From assembly GCA_041659045.1 (NCBI GenBank), contig JBAZZB010000001.1, forward strand, positions 6,111-70,110: 64,000 bases of DNA, read 5' to 3'. The notes beneath the pieces were generated by a model. It had not been told where the DNA came from. It saw nothing but the letters and a program-made list of their open reading frames with translations, and searched no databases. This document shows positions 2,890 through 60,975 of the stretch, one piece after another. Origin of the DNA: Patescibacteria group bacterium (GTDB lineage: Bacteria > Patescibacteriota > Patescibacteriia > SG8-24 > DYFX01). The translations under genes were made by a program, and so were the position numbers. Position 1 is the stretch's first letter. The number at the start of each line of letters is the position of its first letter.

Positions 2890-4200
2890 TTAAAAAAGTT
2901 TCGCGAGCGCGTCTTTCAAATGCGGCGAATTTTTCGGAGTAATCACCTGGCTGAATTGGAGTCGCTTGGCTTCCGCTTCGCGTTTGTCGACAAAGGTGAC
3001 GGGACGCAGTTCTCCGCCCAATCCAACTTCGCCGAAAGCGGCGAGTGAGGCGGGGAGTGGTTTGCCTTTGAGTGCGGAAACAACGGCAAGAACAACGGCG
3101 GCATCGGCGGCAGGTTCTTTCACTTTGTAGCCGCCCGCCACGTTGATATGGATGTCGTGCGTTTGCGTAGGAACGCCCAAGCGTTCGGAAAGAACGGCAA
3201 GGAGCACCTGCAGACGGTTAGCGTCGAAACCGGAAGCACGGCGTTGCGGATAACCGAACGTCGTGCGCGAAGCGAGTGCCTGGATTTCAACCAGAATCGG
3301 CCGCGTGCCTTCCATGATGCAGGTGACGACGGAGCCGGGAACATCTTTGGATCGGTCGTTTAAAAAGAACGACGATGGATTGGCGACTTCCTTAAGGCCG
3401 GAAGCGGTCATTTCAAACACGCCAACTTCGTCGGTTGCGCCAAAGCGGTTTTTGGCAGTGCGGAGCAATCGATAGTTGGAAGAGCGATCACCTTCAAACG
3501 ACACAACGACGTCAACGAGATGTTCGAGCGTTTTTGGTCCGGCCACATCGCCGTCTTTGGTGACCTGTCCGACGATCAGCATTGGCACGCCGCTTTTTTT
3601 GGCGTAGTCCATGAGCTGTGCCGTGAGCGCGCGGATTTGGGTTGCGCCACCTTGCGCGCCGGCCGCTTCGGGGGAGGAGAGCGTTTGGATAGAATCGATA
3701 ATGACGAGCGACGGTTTTTCAGCGTCGATCGTTGCGAGAATCGTCGTGATGTCGGTTTCGGAAAGAAATTTGAGGCTCGGCGCTGCCAAACCAAGACGTT
3801 CAAAACGCAAAGCGACCTGATCGGCCGATTCTTCACCAGAGGCGTAAAGCACGTTCGGAAGAGCGGAAGCGACTTGGAGAAGCAACGTGGACTTACCGAT
3901 ACCTGGCTCTCCCGAAAGAAGTACAAGCGAACCCGGCACGACACCACCGCCGAGCACGCGGTCGAACTCGGCGATACCGGTTGAGCGGTGCGCGGTTTTA
4001 CTGCCCTTCAGTTCAGAGAGGGAATATGTCTTTCCGGGTCGGCCAGTGAGAGCGACAGGTTTTTTTGCTTCCGGAACCGAGGCGAGCTCCGTAACCGTGC
4101 TCCAGCTTCCGCATTCCAAACAACGCCCACTCCACTTGGTGGATTGGGCGTCGCATTTGGTGCAAATGAAGAGCGCTTTCGTGGTCGCTGACATGGACAA
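2890..4200 (-). CDS. radA: DNA repair protein RadA/Sms
   Basis: N-terminal C4 zinc ribbon (CTKCDAQSTKWSGRCLECGSW), RecA-like Walker A GEPGIGKST, KNRFG motif, C-terminal Lon-protease-like domain. Confidence 0.93.
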   Translation of the reverse strand: MSMSATTKALFICTKCDAQSTKWSGRCLECGSWSTVTELASVPEAKKPVALTGRPGKTYSLSELKGSKTAHRSTGIAEFDRVLGGGVVPGSLVLLSGEPGIGKSTLLLQVASALPNVLYASGEESADQVALRFERLGLAAPSLKFLSETDITTILATIDAEKPSLVIIDSIQTLSSPEAAGAQGGATQIRALTAQLMDYAKKSGVPMLIVGQVTKDGDVAGPKTLEHLVDVVVSFEGDRSSNYRLLRTAKNRFGATDEVGVFEMTASGLKEVANPSSFFLNDRSKDVPGSVVTCIMEGTRPILVEIQALASRTTFGYPQRRASGFDANRLQVLLAVLSERLGVPTQTHDIHINVAGGYKVKEPAADAAVVLAVVSALKGKPLPASLAAFGEVGLGGELRPVTFVDKREAEAKRLQFSQVITPKNSPHLKDALAKLF

Positions 4201-33959: not shown

Positions 33960-34277
33960 ATGAAGAAGCGAAACCTGTTCAGCGAACGCGTCATCGAGCT
34001 CGCGCTCTCAATCCCGAAAGGCCGCGTCACGACCTACGGACGACTCGCCCGCGCCGCCGGCGGGGCTCTGCACCGGCCGGTGCAGAGCGGGGGAACGATG
34101 GCCTCGCAAAGCATCACGTCGATTCTTTGGAAAGCCGAACAGCGCGGCGTCAAGAATATTCCGTATCATCGGATCGTGTATGCGGATGGGAGGATTTGGA
34201 TTGATCCGAAGCGGCGAGGGAGAGGTTGGCGCTTTATAAGAAGGAGGGGATTAGAATTGACGAAAGAGACAGGATAA
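33960..34277 (+). CDS. MGMT-fold DNA-binding protein, alkyltransferase-like (ATL) with active-site Cys replaced (PYHRIV)
   Basis: helix-turn-helix TTYGRLARAAG and P-Y-H-R-I-V where O6-alkylguanine transferases have P-C-H-R-V. Confidence 0.65.
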   Translation: MKKRNLFSERVIELALSIPKGRVTTYGRLARAAGGALHRPVQSGGTMASQSITSILWKAEQRGVKNIPYHRIVYADGRIWIDPKRRGRGWRFIRRRGLELTKETG

Positions 34278-46290: not shown

Positions 46291-46384
46291 ACTCACCCCC
46301 TAGCCCCCTCTCTTTCAGAGAGGGGGAATCAGATCCGAATCCCTCCCCTGAAAGGGGAGGTGCCCGCAGGGCGGAGGGGTCTTA

Positions 46385-46417
46385 AAAACTCCCATGACGC
46401 GCGTCATGGGAGTTTTT
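46385..46417. terminator. bidirectional intrinsic terminator (last of three hairpins after thrS)
   Basis: aaaactcccatgacgcgcgtcatgggagttttt; preceded by two further GC hairpins 46297-46360. Confidence 0.75.
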
Positions 46418-48966: not shown

Positions 48967-49000
48967 GCCACGTCGGTCGCGACCGACGTGGTAAGCCGGA

Positions 49001-49202: not shown

Positions 49203-49228
49203 AGAAAAAGCCCCACGTGGGGCTTTTT
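49203..49228. terminator. bidirectional intrinsic terminator
   Basis: aaaaagccccacgtggggcttttt. Confidence 0.8.
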
Positions 49229-49732: not shown

Positions 49733-51268
49733 TTAAAGCTTCCCAAGTTTGGCTTCGAGAATCTCGCGGACAAGATCCGGTTTTGCTTTTCCTTTGGTTT
49801 CTTTCATGACCTGGCCGACCAGGAACATGATCGCGGCTTGCTTGCCGGCTTTGTAGTCACCAACCACTTTTTCGTTGGCGAGGATGATGTTGTCGCACGC
49901 GAGTTCGAGGTCGCCGACGTCGGAGACTTGCTCGAGGCCGCGCTCGGAAACGATCTGGGAAGGATCCTGGCCACTTTCGAGCATGGCACGCAGTACTTCT
50001 TGCGCCGCGGTCGAGTTGATCTTGCCGGCGTGGAGCAAGGTGAGGAATTCGGCAAAATTCTCCGGCGTAACCTTGGCAATGCGAATGTCCGTTTTGATTT
50101 CGGCCATGAGGCCGAGGAGTTTCGAGAGAAGCCAGCCGGAGACAAGTTTGGCGAACTTCGGCTTGACCGCATCCCACGTTTCTTTTTCGCCACTCGACGA
50201 GAGCCATTCTTGAAGTTCGGAGAACGTTTGTTCGGTGAAGTCGGCGAGACCGGGCGTTTCAACAATTTGCTTGGCGTCGGCAGGAGAGAGAGCATATTCC
50301 TCGCGGAAGCGCTGGCGCTTGGCTTCGGGAAGTTCCGGCATTGTTTGTCGTACGGTACGTTCGAGCTCAGCGAGTTCAAGCGGCGGCAGATCTGGTTCGG
50401 GGAAGTAGCGATAGTCGGCAGAATCTTCCTTTACGCGTTGTTCGACCGTAATCTGCTTGTCTTCATCCCAGCCGCGCGTTGTTGTGATCATGGGTGGCGT
50501 ACCGATCTCCCACAGCTTCGTTTGGCGCATGATCTCGTATTCGAGAGCGCGCTCGACGGCCTTGAAAGAGTTCAAGTTCTTCACTTCCGTTTTTGGGTTG
50601 AAGCGCGCGACCGATTCCTTCTCGATCGCCGGATCATCGATCACTTGGCGGAGGCTGACGTTGGCGTCGCAGCGCAGGTGTCCCTTTTCCATTTCAGCGT
50701 CGGAAACACCGAGCGTGCGCATGATGAGGCGCAGCTCGTGCAAGAAGGCTTTAGCTTCGGAAGCCGAGGCGAAGTCGGGTTCGGTGACGATTTCGGCGAG
50801 CGGCGTGCCAGCGCGGTTGAAGTCGACAAGCGAAGCGCGGCCGCCGTCGGCGTGCTGCAGCTTGGCGGCGTCTTCTTCAAGATGGAGGCGCGTGATGCCG
50901 ATCGTGAAGACCGTGCGCTCATTGCCCTTGGCGTAGGGATTCTCAAGCGTCATCGTGCCGGCGACGCCAACAGGTTTGTCGAATTGCGAAATTTGGTACC
51001 CCTTCGGCAAGTCGGGGTAGAAGTAGTTCTTGCGGTCGAATTTCGATTGCGGGGTGATGCGGCAGCCGATCGCGAGCGAGGCCAAAATACCGAAATGAAT
51101 AGCCTGTCGGTTCGCAACTGGAAGCGTGCCGGGGTGCCCCATGCAGATCGGGCAGACGGCGGTATTCGGCGGTGCGTCCTCGGCACGGTTATCGCAGCCG
51201 CAGAACATCTTCGATTTTGTTTTGAGCTGGACGTGGATTTCCAGCCCGATTACGGGCTCCAAAGTCAT
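49733..51268 (-). CDS. gatB: aspartyl/glutamyl-tRNA(Asn/Gln) amidotransferase subunit B
   Basis: GatB N-terminal GLEIHVQL...CGCDN motif and C-terminal YqeY-like domain. Confidence 0.93.
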   Translation of the reverse strand: MTLEPVIGLEIHVQLKTKSKMFCGCDNRAEDAPPNTAVCPICMGHPGTLPVANRQAIHFGILASLAIGCRITPQSKFDRKNYFYPDLPKGYQISQFDKPVGVAGTMTLENPYAKGNERTVFTIGITRLHLEEDAAKLQHADGGRASLVDFNRAGTPLAEIVTEPDFASASEAKAFLHELRLIMRTLGVSDAEMEKGHLRCDANVSLRQVIDDPAIEKESVARFNPKTEVKNLNSFKAVERALEYEIMRQTKLWEIGTPPMITTTRGWDEDKQITVEQRVKEDSADYRYFPEPDLPPLELAELERTVRQTMPELPEAKRQRFREEYALSPADAKQIVETPGLADFTEQTFSELQEWLSSSGEKETWDAVKPKFAKLVSGWLLSKLLGLMAEIKTDIRIAKVTPENFAEFLTLLHAGKINSTAAQEVLRAMLESGQDPSQIVSERGLEQVSDVGDLELACDNIILANEKVVGDYKAGKQAAIMFLVGQVMKETKGKAKPDLVREILEAKLGKL

Positions 51269-51316
51269 AGTATGCCTATCCTAGCAGGTGTTTACGCATA
51301 AAAAAAGGGGCCAGAG

Positions 51317-51832
51317 CTATGTCTGAACCCGGGCGGAAGCCGTCCTTCGTTCGGCGGCTTCGAAGTAGGAAGATGGCGTTCTTTGGAGGTAGATGCTGCC
51401 CAGGAGTCCGAGGAGGCTCACGGCGCAGCCAGCGGCGACCGGTGCGGCCGCGTTCGATGTCGAGCCGATCGCAGCGAGGACGGCGATCGCGCCGATGGCC
51501 GAGATCTTCAGAAAAGCGACGATGGCGCGCTCGAGGATGTAATACTGCCAGGGATGGGGACGCTTCCGTGCTGGCTCCAAGCCAGTGCCCAACGCGTGAT
51601 AGCCGGCGAAGATGAAGAAAACGGCCAGTGCGGCCTTTTCCAGCGCCATACCCGGGCGCGTCAGCGCGCCGGCCGCGAGCGGCACGAAGGAGACGACAGT
51701 GATCAACCCGAGCATGAGTGCCAGGACGGAACGACTGCAGCTCAGGCGGTGCATCAGACGCAGGGTAAGACGATCGAAGGCCGCCTGAATCTTCTCGTCG
51801 ACCCAGCGGAACGGAAAGAGCAGAAATCGCAT
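51317..51832 (-). CDS. small multi-TM membrane protein, paralogue A of tandem family
   Basis: ATG with GGAGGA RBS; own TTGACA-17-TATGTT promoter upstream (51859-51886); N-term motif F..R..D..IQAAFD shared with B and D. Confidence 0.5.
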   Translation of the reverse strand: MRFLLFPFRWVDEKIQAAFDRLTLRLMHRLSCSRSVLALMLGLITVVSFVPLAAGALTRPGMALEKAALAVFFIFAGYHALGTGLEPARKRPHPWQYYILERAIVAFLKISAIGAIAVLAAIGSTSNAAAPVAAGCAVSLLGLLGSIYLQRTPSSYFEAAERRTASARVQT

Positions 51833-51858
51833 GGAATCCTCCGGATGTTTGACGTGAA

Positions 51859-51886
51859 GAACATACGGGCACGCCCAGTCGTTGTC
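51859..51886 (-). promoter_or_regulatory. sigma70-like promoter for paralogue A
   Basis: minus-strand TTGACA (51886-51881) - 17 nt - TATGTT. Confidence 0.45.
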
Positions 51887-51891
51887 AAGAA

Positions 51892-51978
51892 AAAAGCCCA
51901 GACTTACGTCTGGGCAGGAGCGGTCTGCGGCGTTCCGACATGTTCCCGTGCCTTTTCGGCGGGCGGGTTCATGGGGGT
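51892..51978. repeat. 87-bp perfect direct repeat copy 1 (3' coding tail of paralogue B + terminator with stop codon in hairpin loop)
   Basis: identical to 52988-53074; contains gcccagacttacgtctgggc hairpin, minus-strand reads GCCCAGACG-TAA-GTCTGGGC-TTTTTT. Confidence 0.9.
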
Positions 51979-52455
51979 TTTGGCGAGGTAGAGAAGAAGG
52001 AGTGATGTGAAGCAGGCGAGCGAGAGGCCGAGCATGCACACCATGGTTTCTATCTTATAGCGGACATAGACCGCCGTAACCAGAAGCCACAGACTGACGG
52101 CGAGAAGCGCACACTTCATTAGTAGTGTCGCCGAAGCGAGTTGTCGCAGATCCGATCCCGAGAGGATAGATGTTGCTCTGGATTCTGCCTCGCGATCCTC
52201 TTCGTACTGGGCGACGTCGCTCCATGCGAATAAGGCCAGGAGAAACAAGACGAATGCGGCGCCGCCATAGATACGCGCTTGAACGAGCATCGCAAGCGAC
52301 GGACCGAAGAAGGTGAAGGTACAGCAGCATTGCAGTCTGTAGCGGATTACGGACTTCTTGAGCCCGAACTTCAACATGAGGAAGAAGCAGACGGAATCAA
52401 ACCGCTTCTGGATCGCGGCATCCGCGCGCTCTAGGAAAGAAACGACGTACTTCAC
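51904..52455 (-). CDS. small multi-TM membrane protein, paralogue B
   Basis: GTG start overlapping stop of paralogue C (GTGA); C-terminal 25 aa identical to paralogue D (...KTPMNPPAEKAREHVGTPQTAPAQT). Confidence 0.5.
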   Translation of the reverse strand: MKYVVSFLERADAAIQKRFDSVCFFLMLKFGLKKSVIRYRLQCCCTFTFFGPSLAMLVQARIYGGAAFVLFLLALFAWSDVAQYEEDREAESRATSILSGSDLRQLASATLLMKCALLAVSLWLLVTAVYVRYKIETMVCMLGLSLACFTSLLLLYLAKTPMNPPAEKAREHVGTPQTAPAQT

Positions 52456-52928
52456 GGAGCGTCTCCTTTCTCCGGATCTGGCCGGTATCCGAGCGGCGCA
52501 GCGCTCATCACGGCCATGCAGATGGCGACGAGCGCGATGCCGATCGAAAAGAGTGAAACGAGCGCGGCGTGCTCCGCAAATGAGAGGCCGATTTCTCGGA
52601 CGGTTGCCGGAGGTCGGACAAGCATCCAGACGATCTCGATCAGGAGAACGAGTCCGGCCGCTTTTGAGAACCTGCCCCACTTCGCAATGAGCGGATCGTC
52701 TTCTTGGTCGACGGCTTCGAGAAGCGCCGCCGGGAGCACGAAGATCCCGATCATGATGATCGACGTGATCACCGTGATCACCAGCGCTGGGTCAGCCGTA
52801 TCCGCCAGACATGCTCCGATCAAGAGCGCCAGACAGATGATACCATGGCCGAGATAGCAAAACAGCCGCATGCACGACGACTTCTTCCAGCCACGGCGCA
52901 TGAACGCATGAAGGATCAATTGCCCCAT
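52452..52928 (-). CDS. small multi-TM membrane protein, paralogue C (N-terminally shorter)
   Basis: shares FMRRGWKKSS-like segment with D (FMRRFGVRKS); 4 predicted TM helices. Confidence 0.45.
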   Translation of the reverse strand: MGQLILHAFMRRGWKKSSCMRLFCYLGHGIICLALLIGACLADTADPALVITVITSIIMIGIFVLPAALLEAVDQEDDPLIAKWGRFSKAAGLVLLIEIVWMLVRPPATVREIGLSFAEHAALVSLFSIGIALVAICMAVMSAAPLGYRPDPEKGDAP

Positions 52929-52987
52929 TGGTGCCTCCTTTGTGGGACGCTTGAACCTACCCCAGAAGAGTCATCTCGTCAAGATAT

Positions 52988-53074
52988 AAAAGCCCAGACT
53001 TACGTCTGGGCAGGAGCGGTCTGCGGCGTTCCGACATGTTCCCGTGCCTTTTCGGCGGGCGGGTTCATGGGGGT
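52988..53074. repeat. 87-bp perfect direct repeat copy 2 (3' coding tail of paralogue D + terminator)
   Basis: identical to 51892-51978. Confidence 0.9.
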
Positions 53075-53524
53075 CTTTTTCAGGTATTCGTGCGCCAGCG
53101 TGCAGATGAAGAAGTGTCCGATGCAAAGAGAGATACTGGCGGGCTTGTCCATGAGGGCGGTCACGGTCACGATCCCGATGATCGTACAAGCGATCTTGGC
53201 GACTCCGTCCGTGCCGATGTCGGCCACCGAGGCTGTTTGGATCGAGCCTTCGGCTTCATGATCCTTCCCAAGGTTGTTCGTTTGCTCGACCACGATGACA
53301 AGCGCAGAGAACGCGGCGATGATGCCGAAGATCAACGGGTGTCCGTACCACATGCCGAGCTGCACGAGCGCCGAAGCGAGCGTCACAGCCGCGACGGCGG
53401 CGAGCGCGTACCGAATCATCGACTTTCGTACGCCGAAGCGGCGCATGAAGAAGAAGCAGATCGAGTCGAAGCGCTTCTGAACCGCGGCGTCGAGTTTGGT
53501 AAAGAACGCGAAGAGAAAGCTCAT
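53000..53524 (-). CDS. small multi-TM membrane protein, paralogue D
   Basis: ATG (MSFLFAFF) with GAGGAGG RBS; TTGACA -35 element just upstream inside end of tmk; N-term motif KLDAAVQKRFDSICFF matches B. Confidence 0.5.
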   Translation of the reverse strand: MSFLFAFFTKLDAAVQKRFDSICFFFMRRFGVRKSMIRYALAAVAAVTLASALVQLGMWYGHPLIFGIIAAFSALVIVVEQTNNLGKDHEAEGSIQTASVADIGTDGVAKIACTIIGIVTVTALMDKPASISLCIGHFFICTLAHEYLKKTPMNPPAEKAREHVGTPQTAPAQT

Positions 53525-53574
53525 CAGGACCTCCTCGTAAGACATCAGAACAAAAACACGCCTCGACGTTGTTG

Positions 53575-54291
53575 TCAAGACGTGGTGGGTGCAAGTTGCA
53601 GGGCGCGTTCGACGTGCGGCCAGACGAGACCATGACAGTCTTCGATTGAAGGCAGATTACCCTCGGGGGTTATGCAGTCGATCAGGACGTGATTGGGAAA
53701 CTGGTTGGCAAGCTCGCGGTACGCGATCTCGACGTTTTCTTGGTAGGCGCGGTCGCGTTCGTGCATATCTTTTTCCTGGCCGGCGGTGTAGGCACGCGCT
53801 TCCTTTTTTGCCACAAGCGTATCGCGTAGGTCAGCGGGAACCGACATGATGAGCGTAAGGTTCGGGCGGGGGAGCATCATGCGGACAAATTCCAGGTCTT
53901 CAACCCAGAGGCGAAAGGTCGTCCGCTCTTTTGGATCGGCAAAGAAGGCGCTTTCATACGCCATAGCCGAAGCGACAAAACGGTCTGCGATGACGATTTT
54001 TCCCGCGTTGAGCCAGCCTTGAATTTTTTCTTTCGTGGTCTGACGATCGCGGGCGTAGAGCGCAGCCACGACGTATGCGCCAACTTCGTCGCGCGTGCCG
54101 AACTCGCCACGTAGGTACATGTCAATGATTTTTGCCGACGGCGCGCCGTGCTGCGGAAAGCTGATCGTTTCGACCTCGCGGCCGAGCGCACGCAAACGAT
54201 CGACCAGCAATTTCATCTGGGCACTTTTGCCGGAACCGTCACCGCCTTCAAAATTGAGGAAGAATCCACGCATGCTAGGAACCGTCTTCAA
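53575..54291 (-). CDS. tmk: thymidylate kinase
   Basis: P-loop FEGGDGSGKS, DRY-like region, LID; overlaps thyX end by 17 nt. Confidence 0.88.
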   Translation of the reverse strand: MKTVPSMRGFFLNFEGGDGSGKSAQMKLLVDRLRALGREVETISFPQHGAPSAKIIDMYLRGEFGTRDEVGAYVVAALYARDRQTTKEKIQGWLNAGKIVIADRFVASAMAYESAFFADPKERTTFRLWVEDLEFVRMMLPRPNLTLIMSVPADLRDTLVAKKEARAYTAGQEKDMHERDRAYQENVEIAYRELANQFPNHVLIDCITPEGNLPSIEDCHGLVWPHVERALQLAPTTS

Positions 54292-60578: not shown

Positions 60579-60630
60579 CACCCCAGTGCTTCAAGGTACT
60601 CTGTGTCAGAACCGTCAGGAGGAAACCTGC

Positions 60631-60975
60631 ATGTCGGAAAAGCGATTCTTCATCGCTCCGTCCGATCCGGACGCGGGCGACCAGCTGATTGCGTATCTTC
60701 TGCGCGTCGAACACCGTGTCTCACTCAACGATGTCTTCGATCTTTTCTCCGCCAAGAAGGACCCCGTGAAGAAGACGAAGGTTTTCGGTCTGCTCACGGA
60801 CCTGATCATCGCGGAACGTCTGGTCGAGGTGGAACGACATCTCTACTGCTTGCCGAAGCTGAGGTTCCCGGTTCTGGCCGTCGTCGACGTTTCCGTGTTG
60901 CGACGCTCTATCGGAAACAAGGAAGCGCTTCGGTTGAAGCCGTTGTGCCGCGATTCTCCAAAAGATGACGACTGA
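60631..60975 (+). CDS. hypothetical protein (114 aa)
   Basis: AGGAGGA RBS; followed by terminator gatgacgactgacgtcatc + tttttctttt. Confidence 0.5.
   Translation: MSEKRFFIAPSDPDAGDQLIAYLLRVEHRVSLNDVFDLFSAKKDPVKKTKVFGLLTDLIIAERLVEVERHLYCLPKLRFPVLAVVDVSVLRRSIGNKEALRLKPLCRDSPKDDD

Follow-up and report, generated by a model that had tools for sequence, protein, structure and literature searches.

The 64,000-nucleotide (nt) stretch of a Patescibacteria group genome analysed here (hereafter the window; part of contig JBAZZB010000001.1, assembly GCA_041659045.1) carries, between the genes tmk (54291/54273-53575) and gatB (51268-49733), four small membrane-protein genes in tandem, D, C, B, and A, which like tmk and gatB themselves are on the minus strand. 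Gene D (53000..53524, 174 amino acids (aa), annotated as hypothetical protein WC866_00285) adjoins tmk and starts with an ATG placed after a GGAGG; gene C (52452..52928, 158 aa) codes for a small membrane protein and has its own promoter-like site; gene B (51904..52455, 183 aa, WC866_00275) starts at a GTG; and gene A (51317..51832, 171 aa, WC866_00270) occupies the gatB-proximal position. D, B, and A belong to a single unannotated Patescibacteria membrane-protein family, A being a strongly diverged member of it. Genes D and B end in a perfect direct repeat of 87 base pairs (bp), and we argue below that the end of B was probably replaced by one of the D type through recent homologous recombination.

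The two copies of the repeat, R2 at the end of D (52988..53074, minus strand) and R1 at the end of B (51892..51978, minus strand), are identical at 87/87 bases, so that the absence of mismatches claimed in a preliminary description of this DNA was confirmed on recount. They are spaced 1096 bp apart and beyond their ends there are 0 further matching bases in either direction. The pair is the sole exact direct repeat of at least 18 nt on any diagonal (k=18) of the whole window, and the self-comparison that had been proposed for counting copies found these two and no third copy of the 87-mer in the window at up to 3 mismatches (0/100 shuffles gave two matches). Inverted 22- to 30-mers that came up in the repeat scan were discarded as ordinary palindromic terminator stems. 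Read on the minus strand, each copy comprises the last 24 sense codons of its gene (TPMNPPAEKAREHVGTPQTAPAQT) and the TAA stop, followed by 12 non-coding bases which correspond to the 8-nt 3' arm of a terminator hairpin and the first four T of its T-run. The last 25 residues of both proteins had been described as identical, which is correct for the proteins, but the identical DNA covers 24 codons only, the 25th residue from the end (Lys) being encoded by AAG in D and AAA in B and thus lying just outside it.

The rest of B and D is diverged, as had also been described, with nucleotide identities of 0.44–0.60 outside the tail and protein identities of 70/169 aa overall and 22/99 in the middle region. 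Four-fold degenerate sites match between the two genes at 16/17 positions in the last 27 codons, versus 2/7 in the N-terminal region and 3/13 in the middle, and with the latter two values a recent duplication of the whole gene followed by divergence was rejected. Alignment of the family reveals a common layout, consisting of a conserved N-terminus (consensus LDAAIQKRFDSxCFFLMRRFGVRKSxIRY), a variable membrane-spanning middle, and a conserved C-terminal tail. The tail consensus in the close relatives is YLKKTPMNPPAEKAREHVGTPQxAPAxx (TPMNPPAEKAREHVGTPQ.AP..), of which more distant members retain YLx(K/R)TPxxPP(P/A) only. Since the tail is conserved in the family, the identical peptide shared by B and D is largely explained and does not in itself speak for conversion; only the synonymous and non-coding identity counts.

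The stop codons of both genes lie in the loop of a hairpin (GCCCAGAC / GUAA / GUCUGGGC) with an 8-bp stem containing 6 G-C pairs and a 4-nt loop, located at 52992..53011 (minus strand) in D, with its TAA at 53000-53002, and at 51896..51915 (minus strand) in B, with its TAA at 51904-51906. The two hairpins are identical, with a folding energy of -16.7 kcal/mol (z = -4.4 and -5.3; 0/200 shuffles fold as well), and are followed by the T-runs TTTTTT in B and TTTTAT in D. Judged by sequence and fold, hairpin and T-run together form a bona fide terminator-like unit that carries the stop in its loop, which upholds that part of the earlier claim, whereas the 9/3/8 layout proposed there for stem arms and loop gives way to the 8-bp stem and GUAA loop. 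It resembles Rho-independent terminators in its G+C-rich 8-bp stem, its tetraloop, its T-run, and its compensatory conservation, and departs from the usual ones in that its 5' arm is coding and the stop codon sits in the loop. Nor is such a compact unit special to the two repeat copies: a hairpin enclosing the stop and followed by a T-run was present in 14/14 distinct family 3' ends examined, as well as in tmk and one more gene (see below). Two registers were seen, one in which the 5' arm is formed by the last three codons (window D and B, and the relatives L013, L005a, and L007) and another in which it is formed by G-CCC-CNG-CC codons further upstream (most gatB-proximal genes). The stem pair at the third base of a Pro codon is C-G in three genes, T-A in three, and A-T in one, i.e., a compensatory change. 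Being found in all 14 ends, the stop-in-hairpin design is ancestral to the family and not specific to the repeat.

Gene A has a weaker version of the same arrangement (51307..51330, minus strand; TAG in the loop, then T7), the fold of which is not significant taken alone (-9.7 kcal/mol, z = -0.45) and the 3' flank of which is homologous to the gatB-proximal flank of the relatives. Upstream of the family genes, an 11-bp hairpin at 53557..53584 (minus strand; -17.2 kcal/mol, z = -4.3) holds the TGA stop of tmk together with the TTGACA -35 element of D, so that stop, terminator, and next promoter are contained within 28 nt. About 4/16 of the terminators detected in the window overlap a stop codon, that of tmk included. 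Elsewhere in the window, a gene at 60586-60975 on the plus strand likewise ends in a terminator-like hairpin (AAAAGATGACGACTGACGTCATCTTTT, 11 bp) that encloses its stop. The majority of intrinsic termination sites in E. coli are found 25–75 nt downstream of the stop codon (PMC12207403), and a terminator placed 5 bp past the stop falls from ~90% to <10% efficiency through occlusion by the ribosome (PMC4824070). By these rules, a terminator with the stop inside its hairpin should be sensitive to translation.

The nearest comparison for the tails is provided by a sister lineage in sample ERR12080971, with the arrangement tmk-D'-C'-B'-gatB, represented by the contigs L013/L014 (tmk, D', and the start of C') and L017 (the end of C', B', and gatB), which abut by just 9 nt inside C'. 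Tails were compared over 75 nt, from a Thr codon through the stop codon. D and B of the window are identical at all 75/75 positions, including 23 degenerate codons (16 four-fold and 7 two-fold), and at the 12 following non-coding bases, versus 67/75 for the D' and B' tails; the 104 tail pairs other than window D/B reach a mean of 53.5/75 and a maximum of 72/75. Between genomes, the four-fold sites of the tail are 0.5–0.88 identical, similar to the gatB background of 0.60–0.75, and from the background rates we estimate the chance of an identity such as that between D and B at ~1e-4 to 1e-3, so it is well in excess of expectation. A family-wide constraint on the nucleotides of the tail was rejected on the same grounds. 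Because the synonymous sites of the tail vary at background, with no nucleotide constraint, recombination is needed to account for the identity of the DNA.

As for its direction, the tail shared by D and B matches D' at 72/75 positions and B' at 68/75. B has the states of D and D' where B' differs (CCC vs CCG, GTC vs GCC, CCG vs CCA, and ACG-TAA vs ACC-TAG), and the 3' arm of its hairpin is of the D type and not the gccaggggc arm typical of gatB-proximal genes. The codons of B just upstream of the identical tract, GCC AAA (Ala-Lys), match B'. The gene is thus composed of a 5' end (90 nt) orthologous to B' of L017 and ~90% identical to it, a diverged middle, and a tail identical to that of D, and the grouping of its 5' end with B' and of its tail with D constitutes a phylogenetic incongruence. 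In gene D, by comparison, the tail runs unbroken into the promoter and gene C, 87–93% identical to L013 (the positional orthologue), and since this flank is continuous the copy in D appears to be in its native context. It is the 3' end of B that seems to have been overwritten, because its tail is D-type while the adjoining upstream codons match B'. We therefore take R2 as the probable donor or native copy and R1 as the acceptor. The comparison with relatives that had been suggested for detecting conversion tracts thus gave a positive outcome, a D-type tail in B next to sister tails agreeing at only those 67 positions.

Taken together, these data make it probable that a recent homologous recombination event (gene conversion) replaced the 3' end of B with a D-type end, and gene conversion, or an equivalent homologous recombination, which had also been put forward in the preliminary description, is the best supported reading of the 87-bp identity. 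The replacing unit would have consisted of the D-type 24 codons, the stop, the hairpin arm, and the start of the T-run, and homology would have been supplied by a prior ~89% similarity of the tails, including an exact run of ~29 nt. Two versions of this scenario fit equally well, namely an intragenomic non-reciprocal conversion from D to B, or one crossover within the tail by which B acquired a D-type tail and, behind it, the promoter and body of gene A. The mechanism of the recombination, its recency, and the termination of transcription at the hairpins are what the sequences lead us to infer.

Several points weigh against this interpretation. Which way the exchange went, and whether the donor was intragenomic or intergenomic, is judged from one sister lineage present in short contigs. 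The middle of B is also unlike B' (28/101 aa), so that B has a more complex history than a single conversion would give, and a simple D-to-B conversion leaves the origin of gene A and the junction between R1 and its promoter unexplained. The 27 nt in the interior of the repeat come from the metagenome-assembled genome (MAG) only, and bubble popping during assembly could have erased one or a few real differences there. With regard to the hairpins, if the E. coli precedent (PMC4824070) applies, the ribosome would strongly repress a terminator this near to the stop.

A different course of events can be envisaged for the same region, in which a single donor carrying a D-type gene, tail, terminator, promoter, A, and gatB, from another cell or a sister chromosome, inserted A and gave B its D-type tail together, with the left crossover in the B tail and the right one in gatB or its flank; the repeat would then be a by-product of homology-guided insertion and not of intragenomic conversion. 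The sister lineage, which has no A and has B' next to gatB, fits such an insertion. The spacer between B and A (CTTGACAACGACTGGGCGTG) is similar to that between tmk and D (CTTGACAACAACGTCGAGGCGTG), so that the A unit looks like a tmk-proximal unit copied behind a D-type terminator, and the mosaicism between lineages (see below) shows that crossovers in the tail do occur. On the other hand, all 87 positions of the donor's D-type tail must have equalled those of the resident D. A homologue search with A returned A itself only, which makes it an orphan, and no D-R-A arrangement was found. At 18% identity, moreover, A is too far from the resident D to be a recent copy of it. We consider this scenario unlikely. 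A mistake of assembly, with tails that are near-identical only or with segments in the wrong order through a repeat that was collapsed and traversed twice, is conceivable in that the sequence comes from a MAG and that the k=31 graph, where the repeat is joined to two sequences on either side, could in principle also be resolved as D-R-A and a separate circular C-B-R. The repeat is indeed a known trap for short-k assemblies, and contigs break exactly at its ends. Two Logan k=31 contigs from SRR18595301 bear on this: L019 starts at 51921, 30 nt inside R1, and extends across A into gatB, and L020 runs from 53017, 30 nt inside R2, via C and the B body to 51949, 30 nt inside R1. They agree with the MAG without a mismatch along 1069 and 1532 nt and bear out, at each junction, the 30 nt with which the repeat begins and ends. 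Their overlaps of k-1 (30 nt) at both copies are those that a genuine repeat with two entries and two exits would give, with branch points exactly at the repeat ends. The preliminary description had asked for an artefact to be excluded by read mapping; these independent contigs argue against one at the junctions. Moreover, 87 nt are fewer than a normal read, so reads span the repeat, D, tail, promoter, and C are contiguous in L013, as are C' and B' in L017, and even with a few smoothed single-nucleotide polymorphisms the tails would be far closer than those of the sister lineage. An artefact is in our opinion very improbable.

In the preliminary description the repeat was alternatively seen as a mobile 3' cassette, a self-contained module of tail and terminator moving between genes, and its sharp boundaries, its own terminator, and its position directly upstream of a promoter in both copies are compatible with that. 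We dropped this idea and grant it hardly any probability, given that only two copies exist in 64 kb, that only three family genes were recovered from the 646-kb source contig, and that searches with the tail and N-terminal motifs in GTDB representatives and JGI metagenomes gave family genes only, which with few exceptions lie between tmk and gatB. Across this one protein family, the diverged gene A included, the tail is homologous and vertically conserved. Neither a recombinase or transposase signature nor terminal inverted repeats or target-site duplications turned up near the locus. Finally, purifying selection on the nucleotides, for instance on an RNA element or binding site, might keep the tails identical without any recombination, and it is true that the hairpin part is structurally constrained and the peptide strongly conserved. 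Yet the synonymous positions of the tail differ from genome to genome at the gatB rate, tails of paralogues differ elsewhere (0.64 nucleotide identity for L012a/b, 74/120 for L005a/b, and the L013/L017 pair already mentioned), and Rfam gave chance-level matches only in 51000-54000. Of all the explanations considered, this one is to us practically negligible.

Interlocus gene conversion between bacterial paralogues is known, for example, for tufA and tufB in Salmonella and E. coli. The present case is similar in having a short, fully identical tract in diverged paralogues that is ended by loss of homology, in the homogenisation of synonymous sites, and in a tract that groups by genome and not by orthologue. 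The RF1/RF2 release-factor genes (PMC4530459) and mycobacterial PE_PGRS pairs (PMC1762029) are further examples of interlocus conversion. The present case differs from the known ones in that the tract shared by B and D is confined to the 3' end and extends past the stop through the terminator, and in concerning adjacent tandem genes of an unannotated Patescibacteria family, for which RecA dependence and non-reciprocity are presumptive. The phenomenon is therefore of a known kind (homogenisation of paralogues; a terminator overlapping the stop), here found in an unannotated family. Taken alone it carries little weight, as a clean and well-bounded case of 3'-end homogenisation of tandem paralogues in a reduced Patescibacteria genome. 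It would also attest to active homologous recombination in this lineage, with conserved gene ends as crossover points within and between genomes. The repeats now flank 1009 bp (C and the B body), and loop-out deletion or unequal exchange between them is conceivable, in keeping with family-gene copy numbers at this locus that vary from one to three among relatives.

Two linked ideas go further, and we regard them as unlikely: that the conserved 5' and 3' ends of the family genes, the unit of tail and terminator included, serve as anchors for recombination, and that the stop-in-loop terminator is a translation-sensitive switch. If the former were true, paralogues and lineages would exchange the hypervariable membrane-spanning middles through these ends, and even the adjacent tmk, and the gap between tmk and gatB would be a small locus that diversifies a host-facing or phage-facing protein. 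If the latter were true, a ribosome at the stop, with the proline-rich tail in its exit tunnel, would block folding of the hairpin and allow read-through into the next gene. In the close subfamily, ~28 C-terminal residues are conserved and the stop lies in the terminator loop, an arrangement that may be compared with a tnaC-like nascent-peptide logic. The Neisseria pilE/pilS system has conserved ends, variable middles, and recombinational diversification, together with a conserved 3' Sma/Cla repeat. The family shows a resemblance to it, and nothing beyond a resemblance, in its conserved 5' and 3' segments around a diverged middle and in having its breakpoints in the 3' segment, but its locus differs from pilE/pilS in being without silent cassette stores, evidence of programmed variation, or a known role in surface exposure or antigenicity.

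At the loci where both flanks are readable, the family gene sits between tmk and gatB. A single copy is present in CP129476.1 (L001), L015, and L018, and two copies in L012 and L005, the D-C-B-A arrangement of the window being the most expanded among the loci compared. In the sister lineage, which is without gene A, B' directly adjoins gatB; in the window this gatB-proximal position is taken by A, with the conserved gatB flank behind it. The window itself is a mosaic with respect to these genomes. The 3' end of thyX is closest to L012 (0.91–0.95), the tmk and D body are closest to L001 (0.62–0.88, versus 0.08–0.80 for L013 and 0.12–0.90 for L012), and from 53090, the start of the tail, onward the closest relative is L013 (0.87–0.93). 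As the closest relative switches at the start of the tail, the tail is a crossover point between genomes too, in agreement with conserved ends being the source of homology for recombination. At the protein level, thyX is 96% identical to that of L012, while the adjacent tmk is only 48% identical to L012 and 87% to L001 (53575-54575 compared), and gatB is 95–98% identical in all compared genomes. From these values tmk and the D body appear to have been swapped as a block between lineages.

Homogenisation of the tails was also looked for in the other tandem pairs, those of L005 and L012, and was not found. The tandem family genes of L005 (JBBTWH010000004.1, from another Patescibacteria MAG) have 82–83% identical upstream regions and first codons, both starting MGHLISFFSRIDA (stretches 3042-3342 and 3853-4150 compared), and their tails differ (74/120), which suggests homogenisation or conservation at the 5' end and not at the 3' end. 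Two of the records containing a family gene and the gatB flank, L006 (CAYMBC010000016.1) and L007 (CAZHHN010000004.1), are titled 'uncultured Gammaproteobacteria bacterium', probably owing to a mislabelled or contaminated bin.

The family is rare. It gave 18 matches in a word-indexed search, ~179 cluster representatives at E <= 0.001 among 1.84 billion, and 5 loci among GTDB species representatives plus 4 in JGI metagenomes; the comparisons at the DNA level cover about 15 of its members. Profile searches of genes A to D in Pfam, NCBIfam, PADLOC, PHROGs, and PDB gave nothing above the cut-offs. The AlphaFold2 (AF2) model of D is a confident helical bundle (predicted local distance difference test score, pLDDT, 83.7) with a low-confidence C-terminal tail, and a Foldseek search with this model found no match at E <= 0.001 in PDB and BFVD. 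The membership of gene A is indicated by a score of 27.6 bits against a family profile built without it and by its YLQRTP...QT* end, its identity to D being the 18% given above. What these searches flag is a rare unannotated family with conserved ends, a fast-changing middle, and a fixed slot between tmk and gatB.

Gene C has ~90% nucleotide identity to C' in L013/L014/L017. Its motif FMRRGWKKSS is like the family FLMRRFGVRKS, and it may be a truncated, very diverged family member; profile tests did not demonstrate membership (hhalign probability 0.2, 4.9 bits). Within its 5' untranslated region (UTR), the sequence AGCGTCCCACAAAGGAGG (in 52929-52999, minus strand) resembles GACGTCCCGCAAAGGAGG from the 5' UTR of tmk-proximal family genes (53525-53600, minus strand, and L001 7925-8000 compared). 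The stop of C (TGA) and the start of B overlap as GTGA at 52452-52455 (minus strand), a 4-nt overlap that is also kept in the sister lineage (L017 329-332), and this conserved overlap suggests translational coupling of C and B. A promoter-like site for the C-B pair (TTGACG, 17 nt, TAGGTT; 52954..52982, minus strand) begins 5 nt after R2; its -35 and -10 are kept in L013, and a stricter promoter scan did not list it. The corresponding site for A (TTGACA, 17 nt, TATGTT; 51860..51888, minus strand) begins 3 nt after R1.

The genes neighbouring the cluster are thyX, tmk, gatB, miaA, and a dUTPase gene. Between A and gatB, the region from the T-run to the first gatB codons (51269-51316, minus strand) is 95–99% identical across genomes (108 nt aligned: L001 8534-8641, L017 889-996, and L018 1155-1262), and in these same genomes the third-codon positions of gatB differ by 25–40%. 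It contains TGCTAGGAT, an extended -10-like sequence which ends 8–9 nt before the ATG, and no Shine-Dalgarno sequence; the mRNA on which gatB is translated may have no leader, or almost none. Outside the cluster, the window has perfect palindromes of 23–34 nt at 46384-46417, 49205-49228, 34065-34088, and 48968-48991, and those at 46384-46417 and 49205-49228, with A-runs and T-runs at their flanks, look like bidirectional terminators between convergent genes.

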